This document shows positions 15,839-21,837 of a DNA stretch of 58,712 bases, one piece after another (position 1 is the stretch's first letter; every line of letters begins with the position of its first letter). The stretch is from contig JAEOSZ010000114.1 of assembly GCA_016840095.1 (NCBI GenBank), positions 1-58,712 of the forward strand, written 5' to 3'. The stretch comes from Candidatus Heimdallarchaeota archaeon. Its GTDB lineage: Archaea; Asgardarchaeota; Heimdallarchaeia; Heimdallarchaeales; Heimdallarchaeaceae. The position numbers were made by a program, and so were the translations under genes. Under the pieces are notes generated by a model, which ran no database searches, was not told the DNA's origin, and worked only from the letters and a program-made list of their open reading frames with translations.

Positions 15839-16321
15839 ATGAGCAAAGAAGAAAGAATAGAGTTTTACAACGAGCAAATGGAAGTAGAAAAGAAAATAGT
15901 TGAAACAGCTCAGAAAGCTGTAAAAGGTATTAAGAATCCATTGGTTAGAGAGATGATACTTGCAGTTGCATTAGATTCTCAAAAGCACGAAACTATGCTG
16001 CAAGCATTACTTGACAGATTAACTGGACCAAGTCCTGCAATTGATGAAAAAGTATCTGAAGAGATTGCTCATGCAATACAAGAACATGTAGAGCTAGAAG
16101 CTCTAGCATTGAAGAAATATAAGGAATATATTGATAATGTATCTTTCCTAGATAATAAGGAGAAGATAGTTATTCGAGCTATCTATGAAGATGAGCTTAG
16201 ACATCATGAATTGATGAAATGGATCTATAAGACCATAGTTGAAAAGGAAACACTAATTGAGGAAGATGTTTGGGATCATATGTGGTCAGATGCTTTTACT
16301 CATGGAACTCCTGGTGGATAG
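15839..16321 (+). CDS. Ferritin-like (rubrerythrin-type) four-helix diiron protein
   Basis: E...DSQKH...E..E...DELRHH diiron pattern. Confidence 0.85.
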   Translation: MSKEERIEFYNEQMEVEKKIVETAQKAVKGIKNPLVREMILAVALDSQKHETMLQALLDRLTGPSPAIDEKVSEEIAHAIQEHVELEALALKKYKEYIDNVSFLDNKEKIVIRAIYEDELRHHELMKWIYKTIVEKETLIEEDVWDHMWSDAFTHGTPGG

Positions 16322-16408
16322 TTATAGTTTCACCTATTTATCCATTCTTTCCATTCTTTGTTAGTAAGATTAAATAATGAAATCTTTTCTGTATACAAGT
16401 GATAGTAA

Positions 16409-17104
16409 ATGAAGATTGATCTTGATTCGGAGAATGAGTGGGGTCATTTCATAGATCCTCATTCCTTTCAAATCGTAGAAATAATTGATGAAGTTCCACT
16501 AGGTTCGTTTGTTGTAATAAAGGAACGAGAATTTATAGAAGATATTGATAGGACTGTTATTCAAACAATCTATGGGATTGTTGAGGAAAAAAAATTCCAA
16601 CCAATGAATAAAAGAGAATTAAGTAAGCTTATGTCTAAGGCTTGCGGGAAATATATCCTAGATTTTAATCAGCTACCTCCTAAAGTCATGGTTAAAAAGA
16701 AACTTCAGATTGACAAACCAGCACAATTGGCGTTTATTATGTCAAATCGCGATACTTTCCATTTGAAACTAGACAAAGATGATTTAGATGGCGGGAATCC
16801 TTATGAAATTATCAATTCTATTATAGAAAATCAAGACTTTAAATCAACAATGTATGATAGAGAAGAGAAGTGGAAGATTGAATATGCAAAAAGCAGTAGA
16901 TCAAAGTGTAGAACTTGTAGTTCTAATATCGAAAAGGATACTGTTAGGTTAGGTGAACCTCATTATTTTGAAGAGCATCTTAATTATCGGTGGCATCATG
17001 AAGATTGTGTTTTCTTCCAAAGAATGGACAAAGAAAACATAAAAGGTCTTGATACCTTAAACGATGAAGATAGAAAAAGAATAGAAGAGAAACTGGATGT
17101 ATAA
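16409..17104 (+). CDS. Protein with C-terminal PARP-type zinc finger (zf-PARP)
   Basis: WKIEYAKSSRSKCRTC...IEKDTVRLG...WHHEDC...IKGLDTLNDEDRKRI matches the PARP1/DNA ligase III CCHC finger pattern. Confidence 0.85.
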   Translation: MKIDLDSENEWGHFIDPHSFQIVEIIDEVPLGSFVVIKEREFIEDIDRTVIQTIYGIVEEKKFQPMNKRELSKLMSKACGKYILDFNQLPPKVMVKKKLQIDKPAQLAFIMSNRDTFHLKLDKDDLDGGNPYEIINSIIENQDFKSTMYDREEKWKIEYAKSSRSKCRTCSSNIEKDTVRLGEPHYFEEHLNYRWHHEDCVFFQRMDKENIKGLDTLNDEDRKRIEEKLDV

Positions 17105-17124
17105 GTCCAGTTATTAATTTTGTT

Positions 17125-18949: not shown

Positions 18950-19681
18950 TCAGCTTAGTTTTAAGAATTTCTTCAACCAATCTGGAAAAATGTATCCCAA
19001 ATACCCACAAAAAACTCCTACTCCTGCAGATATCCAAGCTGCATAATAGAATGGTGAGTAGCCTTCAGGCATGATTAAATCCAGTGCAAATAGAACAAAT
19101 ACTGAAGACACAAAAACACCATAAAATCCAATCAAAACAAATCCTACTTTTGGCATTGCTTGATCACTTTTTGCTGCTTCTCTAAAAGCAAAGAATGCTA
19201 ATAACCCAAATGTAATCAAAGATAGAGCTGCATGATAGATCACGTATGGTTGTGTCTCAGAATAAACTTCATCTTGGAAACGATTTATTACAATTAAACA
19301 TCCTACTGTAATTCCATTTGCTATCCCTGAAAGTGCTACAGAAATTCCTCCTAGATTAAGAAATACCTCATCTAGAAATGCAAAAAGAAACACATTTGCA
19401 ATTGCTGTTACTGTATATGCAATAACTATCCATCCTCCAGCATAATCAATTAGAGGTGAAGGTGATGGATGATAGAAGTTTATCCATTTTCCGAGAGCAC
19501 TTGCTCCGACTCCTAGTGATAAAAAAAGAAAACTTAACGATAAATAGAGGGTGGGTTTTCTCTTTCTTTGAAAGAACTTTTGTATTGTTCTTACAGTTAG
19601 AATTATCATACAAATAGCAATAATTGTTTCAATTATTACTGCTAGTATAGGTATCTCGTTACTCATTGTTTGCCAAACCAT
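18950..19681 (-). CDS. Seven-transmembrane protein of unknown function
   Basis: Seven hydrophobic helices, ending GYIFPDWLKK; a GGTGA ribosome site overlaps the stop codon of the upstream longin gene. Confidence 0.8.
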   Translation of the reverse strand: MVWQTMSNEIPILAVIIETIIAICMIILTVRTIQKFFQRKRKPTLYLSLSFLFLSLGVGASALGKWINFYHPSPSPLIDYAGGWIVIAYTVTAIANVFLFAFLDEVFLNLGGISVALSGIANGITVGCLIVINRFQDEVYSETQPYVIYHAALSLITFGLLAFFAFREAAKSDQAMPKVGFVLIGFYGVFVSSVFVLFALDLIMPEGYSPFYYAAWISAGVGVFCGYLGYIFPDWLKKFLKLS

Positions 19682-19686
19682 AATTT

Positions 19687-20133
19687 TCACCAAAATGAAT
19701 CTTTAATCTTCTTTAGCGCTTGACTATCCTTAACTGAATCTTCCCACTTAGCCATAAGATCTTCAATGATGTTTGCCATTTGAATTTCTTGCTCAAAACT
19801 TAGTATTCCAACTTCTGGAAGTTCAATAAAATTGAAAGTTATTTGTGTAATTAATTCAGCTATCATATCATTGATTGATTCTCTTTCAAAATTATCCTTT
19901 ATGTCTTTTACAAGTGCTACAGCAAAGTCGCTAGTTGCTTCAACATAAACTTCATGTGTTTGAGTAGTTAGATAGTTTGCTTCTCCAGCATCAATTTCCT
20001 GCAATACAGTTCTGATTGCTGAAATTACTCCAGAAAATAAAGTTACTTTAGTTACATCATCTTCTTCAGGTGTTCTTTCTTTGAAATATATGGGAACACC
20101 GGTCCTTGAGATAATGTAAACAGCTTGAATCAT
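19687..20133 (-). CDS. Stand-alone longin-domain protein
   Basis: MIQAVYIISRTGVPIY...LFSGVISAI...three beta strands...helix: longin (sigma-adaptin/TRAPP-like) pattern. Confidence 0.75.
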   Translation of the reverse strand: MIQAVYIISRTGVPIYFKERTPEEDDVTKVTLFSGVISAIRTVLQEIDAGEANYLTTQTHEVYVEATSDFAVALVKDIKDNFERESINDMIAELITQITFNFIELPEVGILSFEQEIQMANIIEDLMAKWEDSVKDSQALKKIKDSFW

Positions 20134-20248
20134 TACGTAATAGTATTCAACAAATTTACTTTTAAATCTGGTGAGACTGACAATAGGATATTTTTTTACA
20201 ATTGATACAATCAGAAATGTTTTTGTTTAACCAAGTAATTTTACTATC

Positions 20249-20452
20249 ATGCATATAGTAGTTAATTCAAAACGAGAAAGAGATGCTCTTATTGAACTTT
20301 TCAAAAGTCTTGAGAAGAAAGATATGAACTTCTTTTTGGACTTTGATGAAGAATCCCTTACTTTCTTAGTTGAGATGTTTTTTGATGAGCTTTGTAATTG
20401 TGAGATAGTTATAGACAAAGATGAAGAACCAACAGGAATAATAGAAGATTGA
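20249..20452 (+). CDS. Small acidic hypothetical protein (67 aa)
   Basis: ORF fills the intergenic gap and has a protein-like composition. Confidence 0.55.
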   Translation: MHIVVNSKRERDALIELFKSLEKKDMNFFLDFDEESLTFLVEMFFDELCNCEIVIDKDEEPTGIIED

Positions 20453-20493
20453 TTATGCAATAAAGTTATATTGATTTTTTCTAATTATCTTTT

Positions 20494-21837
20494 ATGAGGA
20501 GCGAACAGATTGTATGCAACAGCTGTGGAAGTTTACATATAGCAACTTCTTTGAGATGTTCGAAGTGTAAAAAACTCATATCTATTCCTCCTATATCTGG
20601 ACCTGAAAAATCCAAAATCCAAGTAAATTCTATGTGGTCTTTCATAGATTTTCTCCCAACATACTCTCATCCGGTTTCACTGCTAGAAGGAAACACTCCT
20701 TTGTTGAAGGTAAATAACATTGAACGTCTTAAGAATCTTAGTTTGAAATTGGAGTTCAGAAATCCAACAGGTTCGTTTAGAGATAGAGCTAGTTCATTGG
20801 TTGTATCAGATGTAGTCCATAGAGAAATTACTAAGGTAATAGGTGCAAGTACGGGTTCTTTTAACATCAGTTTATCTGCATATGCTGCAAAAGCTGGAAT
20901 ACAATCTTATAGTGTCATTCCCCATAATCTAGAACTTAGTAAAATTGAACAAATGAAGATATATGGTAGTGAGATAATTGAAAGAGGAAGTACTGTTGAA
21001 GAATCAATTTTAGAAGCAGAGCAACTCAGTGTTGAATTGAATGCATATTTAGCTACACCAGAAAACAATATTTTAGCTATTGAAGGTCAGAAAACCTTAG
21101 GTTTAGAATTGGCTTTGCAGAAAAGAAATTTCGATGCACTAATTGTACCTCGAGGTTCAGGTTCGCTTATTTACTCTGTTTATAGAGGTTTTGAGGATGC
21201 AATTGCATCAGGTTGGATCAGTAAAATCCCCCGGATTTATGCTATATCTCTTGAAAAATCAAAGAGTGCATCACTTGCTGAATCACTTGAAATTGATCAA
21301 CCATTTCTTCTTGAAGAAGTTAGAGAAACTATTAATTTAACCAAAGGACGAGAAATTGAAATCGGTGCTCAAAAGATGATAGATGAAGCACTACATCTAT
21401 CAAAGAGAGAAGGTTTGTTTATAGAACCAGCTTCAGCTTCTGTTCTTGTTGCAGCTACTGAGTTAGTGGAACAAGAAGAGATTGAAACACAGAATACAAT
21501 CGCCATTCTTTCTGGTACAGGTTTCAATGCACTCAATATATATGCCTCTCAAATGAGAGACCAGAAAAAAGTAGTCTGGGGTTTATCTGAAGGATCAACA
21601 ACTAAATTTGAAATACTTAATCTAATTTCTGAAGGTAAGGCAACTTATGGTATTTCTATCTGGGAATCACTTGGAAAAGCAAAATCCAAGCAATCTATCT
21701 ATCAACATCTCAATGAACTTCAAGATAAAGGATTGATTGTTCTAACTGATAAAGAAACTAAAATTAAAGAGTTCAAAGTAACTAAGAAAGGTTTTGAAAC
21801 AATAGAAAAAATGAAAGATCTAATTGATTTTATCTAG
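20494..21837 (+). CDS. Threonine-synthase-like (PLP fold II) domain lacking the PLP lysine, fused to C-terminal winged HTH; probable transcription regulator
   Basis: CxxC/CxxC N-terminus; EGNTPL; NPTGSFRDR (canonical SFKDR); EGQKT; EPASA; C-terminal FEILNLISEG..YG..IW...QSIYQHLNELQDKGLI. Confidence 0.85.
   Translation: MRSEQIVCNSCGSLHIATSLRCSKCKKLISIPPISGPEKSKIQVNSMWSFIDFLPTYSHPVSLLEGNTPLLKVNNIERLKNLSLKLEFRNPTGSFRDRASSLVVSDVVHREITKVIGASTGSFNISLSAYAAKAGIQSYSVIPHNLELSKIEQMKIYGSEIIERGSTVEESILEAEQLSVELNAYLATPENNILAIEGQKTLGLELALQKRNFDALIVPRGSGSLIYSVYRGFEDAIASGWISKIPRIYAISLEKSKSASLAESLEIDQPFLLEEVRETINLTKGREIEIGAQKMIDEALHLSKREGLFIEPASASVLVAATELVEQEEIETQNTIAILSGTGFNALNIYASQMRDQKKVVWGLSEGSTTKFEILNLISEGKATYGISIWESLGKAKSKQSIYQHLNELQDKGLIVLTDKETKIKEFKVTKKGFETIEKMKDLIDFI

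Follow-up and report, generated by a model that had tools for sequence, protein, structure and literature searches.

The window, that is, the whole stretch of 58,712 nucleotides that was analysed, encodes a small two-domain protein between a ferritin-like gene and a convergent acyl-CoA ligase gene. The features of this locus are the following:

15839..16321, + strand: ferritin-like gene (rubrerythrin-type), 87 bp upstream of the finger gene
16366..16377, + strand: purine-rich and TATA-like element, 32-43 nt before the ATG; close orthologues have one at a similar position
16409..17104, + strand: gene of the two-domain protein (231 aa, ATG start), comprising an N-terminal domain (NTD) and one PARP-type zinc finger
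16409..16828, + strand: NTD (aa 1-140), alpha/beta, without family or fold match
16838..16864, + strand: flexible linker (aa 144-152), pLDDT under 50
16871..17095, + strand: zf-PARP finger (aa 155-229, W155 to L229)
17091..17112, no strand assigned: hairpin with T-rich tails on both strands, between the finger gene and the convergent acyl-CoA ligase gene

In this AT-rich genome, the element at 16366..16377 is probably the finger gene's own promoter, and the hairpin at 17091..17112 is probably a terminator.

The first-pass annotation had described a zf-PARP signature at 16871-17095, joined to an unrecognised N-terminal domain of about 150 aa and to no PARP catalytic or ligase domain. All of this holds, with the coordinates exact. 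The Pfam search that it had proposed matches zf-PARP (PF00645) at aa 158-228, over positions 1-86 of the 87 of the profile (E 3.5e-17, 63.3 bits against a gathering cut-off of 39.3 bits), and this is the sole Pfam match in the protein; the same scan found no PARP catalytic, WGR, BRCT, Zn3 or ligase domain in the 231-aa chain. What precedes the finger is an NTD of about 140 aa plus the linker, and neither Pfam nor an NCBIfam scan gave a match there or, in the case of NCBIfam, anywhere in the protein. The four zinc ligands are C167 (nt 16907), C170 (16916), H197 (16997) and C200 (17006). In a sequence search of the PDB, the top matches were PARP1 Zn1/Zn2 (E 5e-12) and DNA ligase III (E 0.006). 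The AlphaFold2 model consists of two confident domains (mean pLDDT 89.8) with a disordered linker between them, and its finger superimposes on PARP1 Zn1/Zn2 with a target TM of 0.69-0.81 and an rmsd of about 2.3 A (Foldseek E 6.5e-6 to 2e-4). Purifying selection acts on both domains (pN 0.07-0.22 and pS 0.53-0.84 against five orthologues). The protein belongs to the zf-PARP family and is neither a PARP nor a ligase III.

In the fingers of PARP1, R18 grips the backbone, F44 stacks on the exposed base pair and D45 relays activation (PMC8150716). By alignment, R164, F187 and E188 of the window protein correspond to R18, F44 and D45, respectively. R34 and V48 are further contact residues of the PARP1 finger, and they align with R180 and L191. 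Across 46 family members, C167, C170 and H197 are found in all 46 and C200 in 45, while R180 is kept in 45, R164 in 43, and F or Y at position 187 and L or V at position 191 in 40 each. As a separate observation, the fourth zinc ligand is replaced by Tyr in the orthologue of genome G005 (L176:4284-4979). The Pfam and fold matches, together with the retention of the zinc ligands and DNA-contact residues and with the fusions, ligase and HhH neighbours and PARP searches described below, speak for a stand-alone Asgard protein that serves, without catalysis, as a DNA-break binder or adaptor, a role that we consider somewhat probable from sequence and model. Against it stand the net acidic character of the protein (pI 5.4), the patchiness of the family, the lack of a conserved repair-gene neighbourhood in the loci compared (see below) and the existence of altered paralogues.

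One such paralogue is found in the same genome (contig C138; L002:1015-1719). This second NTD-finger copy, 29% identical to that of the window, keeps the zinc ligands, whereas its AKS grip motif and its stacking loop are altered, as is the position of R180. It falls in a separate paralogue clade, in which the AKS motif and the stacking loop are changed clade-wide and which is a natural control. That paralogues tolerate changes in grip and loop would also suit a general structure-preferring nucleic-acid binder, or a chromatin or regulatory protein (acting on ssDNA, hairpins or RNA ends), with no dedicated role at DNA breaks. However, the residues for stacking on an exposed base pair are retained in the main orthologue group, and we regard such a general binder as rather unlikely.

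Regarding possible partners, the PARP catalytic domain (PF00644) was not found in the own genome, which is 89% complete, nor above the cut-off in 301 Asgard genomes, in searches that had no positive control, and no WGR domain was found in the own genome. This genome has one ATP-dependent DNA ligase, encoded by a separate gene on contig C95 and devoid of a finger.

The conserved residues of the NTD are W11, F20, K38, Y55, K68, P90, D115 and F117. Fold searches of the PDB (with Foldseek, as had been proposed, and with VIA), the ESM Atlas and BFVD brought up no clear match. They hardly covered aa 67-140 and fall short of proving a new fold. Two candidate assignments were rejected. A strand-strand-strand-helix pattern prompted a comparison with WGR, for which hhalign gave 0.4% against a shallow PARP1 WGR alignment, and no Pfam WGR match was found among 34 NTDs. 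Similarly, there is a weak match to the PH region of Bem3 (E 0.03, aa 12-75), but the order of elements in the model differs. When 112 NTDs were scanned with PADLOC and PHROG, only single-member matches came out, no NTD copies were found in viral contigs, phages or plasmids, and a homodimer prediction scored 0.00, which has no bearing either way. The domain is present in 74 of the 301 Asgard genomes, and its partners swap: zf-PARP, SWIM, an OB-like tail, winged-helix modules and tandem NTD copies have been seen. It appears to be an undescribed, Asgard-centred family with a confident model and without a catalogued fold and is, for these reasons, a ready target for structure determination. G224, a closed Asgard genome from another class (a single 4.36-Mb contig), also encodes a distant NTD with an OB-like tail (L159:4577-5458) and would offer an in vivo handle if the strain is a cultured one.

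The NTD could itself be an end-processing enzyme, that is, a phosphatase, lyase or nuclease of new fold steered to breaks by the finger, as in plant ZDP. In eukaryotes, the finger is as a rule attached to the enzyme that it serves (PARP1, or ZDP with PF08645), and several NTD residues are well kept across 137 diverse copies (K38 in 85%, Y55 and D115 in 81% each, K68 in 71%). Nevertheless, no polar residue is invariant in the NTD, no His/Asp/Glu metal cluster and no enzyme fold match were found, and tandem and finger-less copies suit a binding module. We consider an enzymatic NTD unlikely.

The gene just upstream on the same strand had been described as ferritin-like, and this is borne out, although its match to Rubrerythrin (21 bits) lies below the 22.8 cut-off and the gene is thus weakly ferritin-like. 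By contrast, the idea that both genes form a co-regulated unit for oxidative stress and DNA protection fares poorly. Proximity, shared strand and adjacency in 12 loci would favour it, but all of these belong to close orthologues and, since they share the whole block (acyl-CoA ligase, ThrC-like, longin), the adjacency is ordinary synteny. No such neighbour adjoins the 56%-identical orthologue of G005 or any of the paralogues, and it is also missing in three other genera of the family. Furthermore, the 87-bp gap between the two genes contains a T-rich tract and the TATA-like box at a conserved distance, so that the finger gene has a box of its own. An unrelated bacterioferritin (PF00210) is the gene directly upstream in L110, a Thorarchaeia-type locus, and two more loci have it within 4 kb, which leaves room for a loose link to stress. 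In any case, we find a co-regulated unit very improbable.

Other details of this block deserve mention. The ferritin-like protein (15839-16321) ends in GTPGG, a C-terminal diglycine, in all orthologues seen, and a 45%-identical paralogue on contig C13 lacks this ending. The conserved block also takes in window positions 18950-21837, where a Roadblock/longin-like gene and a multi-TM gene overlap and where a ThrC-like PLP protein with a winged HTH at its C-terminus is encoded.

No neighbour is conserved across the wider family. The adjoining genes differ between loci, and most of them are metabolic or membrane genes, as would be expected for the general binder discussed above. Scattered neighbours, in single or paired cases, point to nucleic-acid end joining: a NAD-dependent DNA ligase gene was found twice, once with a shortened, finger-less NTD gene directly 3′ of it (L024:3006-5314) and once two genes after an NTD-SWIM gene (L179:5001-7966), and an HhH protein gene precedes the NTD-finger gene in a related genus. 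Additionally, an RtcB gene adjoins one NTD-finger gene and an archease gene lies directly downstream of one NTD-SWIM gene; both hint at RNA ends, which again would suit a general binder, but they are two isolated cases. In another locus (L181:5001-7864), an NTD-SWIM gene faces two convergently oriented ARPP-1 (PF20208) genes, and an Ssb-like OB gene lies nearby.

Close homologues of the window protein are named Heimdallarchaeota or Heimdallarchaeaceae. The zf-PARP domain occurs in 94 of the 301 Asgard genomes, all of which belong either to the Thorarchaeia family or to the class of the window's host. The counts are 21/28 for the host's family, 9/11 and 3/3 for two others of the same order, 19/21 for Hodarchaeales (f5) and 40/76 for Thorarchaeia (f11), the last two families being identified by the names of member proteins. 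In family f14 it was found in 0/68. Because the family is so patchy (40/76 in Thorarchaeia, none in f14), the window gene can be taken as dispensable. According to the supplement (section 4.1.3) of Eme et al. 2023 (Nature 618:992; PMC10307638), zf-PARP homologues were detected only in Heimdall- and Thorarchaeia; keyword searches of the papers covered returned nothing on Asgard zf-PARP, this supplement being the one place where a prior report turned up. Consequently, zf-PARP in Asgard archaea is an already published eukaryotic signature, going by that section.

Several architectures exist in these archaea, namely NTD-finger (own family and Thorarchaeia), finger-OB, finger-OB-finger (one member is named Kariarchaeaceae) and finger-finger-winged helix. 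Otherwise, the partners of Asgard fingers are OB folds (Ssb-like PF21473, PF01336), winged helices (RPA_C on P0077) and one PD-(D/E)XK-like domain, the latter fused to zf-PARP in a Thorarchaeia genome (L147:2708-3484; weak Pfam match, E 0.04). In Hodarchaeales, a finger-finger-winged-helix-like protein of about 264 aa is found in 19 of 21 genomes with conserved synteny (L135-L144, L149-L154). This twin-finger protein recalls PARP1 Zn1-Zn2, and in one copy (L141:3591-4718) the two fingers flank an Ssb-like OB fold, a link to the Kariarchaeaceae-type finger-OB-finger proteins.

In bacteria zf-PARP is sporadic, with copies named Polyangiaceae, Obscuribacterales and Planctomycetota. The twin-finger family of Polyangiaceae and Obscuribacterales was found in 5 of 121 genomes in the phylum of the Polyangiaceae genome. 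Bacterial NTD-finger copies are few; one comes from a named Planctomycetota MAG, and several other rows were labelled bacterial by composition and neighbours, not by name. The NTD was found in 0/121 genomes of the Polyangiaceae phylum and in 1/201 of the phylum of the Planctomycetota MAG. Given this distribution, the NTD-finger protein is Asgard-centred and its bacterial copies are most simply late transfers. As to the suggestion that the window gene encodes a candidate eukaryotic-signature protein, the presence of the finger in Asgard archaea and eukaryotes stands, but the label needs qualifying because named bacteria carry it too.

The finger tree (93 fingers, 82 columns, LG+C20+F+G4) included mostly plants and animals on the eukaryotic side, with one ligase III-like finger and no fungi. 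In it, the eukaryotic fingers come out together (99/99), those of the bacterial twin-finger proteins are split between two clades (99/98, 100/98), and Hodarchaeales and Kariarchaeaceae-type fingers stand apart. The window copy is nested neither among the bacterial twin fingers nor inside the eukaryotes, as judged from this sequence tree. The phylogeny proposed with the first-pass annotation thus upholds a placement outside the bacterial copies, but not firmly a sister relationship to eukaryotes: the NTD-finger family adjoins them with a support of 82/45, and AU tests rejected neither a grouping of eukaryotes with bacterial first fingers (p 0.44) nor one with Hodarchaeales/Kariarchaeaceae-type fingers (p 0.32). 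In a tree of NTD plus finger, in which NTD-SWIM rows have no finger columns, the window protein falls with members of its own family (100/98), and NTD-SWIM proteins from the same order join this clade (97/92), which suggests vertical descent with finger swapping. A placement of bacterial NTD-finger copies inside Thorarchaeia, seen in the finger tree (95/92) and in a quick tree, was not adopted, since an alternative with the archaeal copies in one group was not rejected (p-AU 0.87); as the NTD+finger tree also leaves this placement open, the trees do not fix the direction of transfer. A genome titled Thorarchaeota (L109) shares the gene block of the window, and its protein clusters with that of the window; it is apparently a misnamed genome of the window's genus.

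The end of the finger offers an additional character. The window finger has a C-terminal cap, G-x-x-x-L...D, and the corresponding pattern (hydrophobic-x-G-x-x-x-L...D/E-Q/K), which was defined after viewing the alignment and has a looser form in some Kariarchaeaceae-type first fingers, is present in 24/26 eukaryotic fingers and, among NTD-finger proteins, in 39/51 archaeal and 6/11 bacterial ones, and in 0/45 bacterial twin fingers, 0/21 Hodarchaeales and 0/16 Kariarchaeaceae-type fingers. This cap may be ancestral. Hodarchaeales are the order proposed as sister to eukaryotes, and the occurrence of a eukaryote-type cap in the NTD-finger family, not in the Hodarchaeales twin-finger protein, bears on the origin of PARP1 fingers. 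Regarding another part of the finger, the first-finger loop (PNPF/NPY) of the bacterial twin-finger proteins P0202, P0250 and their kin is closer to that of the ligase III-like P0320 than the Asgard loop is.

If the window protein is a break binder, R164 and R180 would hold the backbone beside a nick, gap or end, and F187 and L191 would stack on the exposed base pair independently of sequence, as in PARP1 and ligase III. In the model, the finger hangs by the flexible linker from the separately folded NTD. This domain, with its conserved basic and aromatic residues, might provide a second nucleic-acid contact or, perhaps, hand the break over to a repair enzyme; a candidate recipient would be the finger-less ATP-dependent DNA ligase of the genome. 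No ADP-ribose signalling through a PARP would be involved.

More tentatively, it is possible that the NTD is a new fold handling nucleic-acid ends and, jointly, that the Asgard NTD-finger family is the closest prokaryotic kin of the PARP1/ligase III/ZDP finger, closer than Hodarchaeales or bacterial twin-finger proteins. If true, break sensing by this finger would predate eukaryotes, would be independent of PARP, and would have been grafted later onto PARP and ligase. At 231 aa the protein is small, it looks soluble and its DNA-contact residues are retained, so that whether the PARP1 finger sensed nicks before PARP signalling could be tested on it directly. What appears to be new here is the NTD as a partner domain, zf-PARP in these archaea being known before from a one-line domain report in the supplementary section cited above.

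In comparison with known systems, the Asgard zf-PARP of Eme et al. 2023 (PMC10307638) is the same domain in the same lineages (Heimdall- and Thorarchaeia); the supplementary passage gives no architecture, phylogeny or bacterial comparison, whereas several architectures are described here. The bacterial twin zf-PARP proteins (Polyangiaceae, Obscuribacterales; 170-215 aa) are likewise non-catalytic and prokaryotic and have the same finger, but they have two fingers and no NTD, fall in their separate clades (99/98, 100/98) and lack the eukaryote-type cap. With PARP1 Zn1/Zn2 (PDB 3od8, 3odc, 2n8a), the window protein has in common the fold, the CCHC ligands, the R18/F44/D45 equivalents and the C-terminal cap, although it has one finger, at the C-terminus, and is devoid of Zn3, BRCT, WGR and catalytic domains. 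Plant ZDP (zinc-finger DNA 3′-phosphatase; zf-PARP and PF08645) also carries the finger outside a PARP or ligase, in this case as 2-5 fingers with a known phosphatase domain, in contrast to one finger and an NTD without family match. Finally, the window protein differs from DNA ligase III (PDB 1uw0) in the absence of a ligase core and in the position of the finger, which comes after its partner and not before it, but in both a single finger is connected by a flexible linker to another domain.
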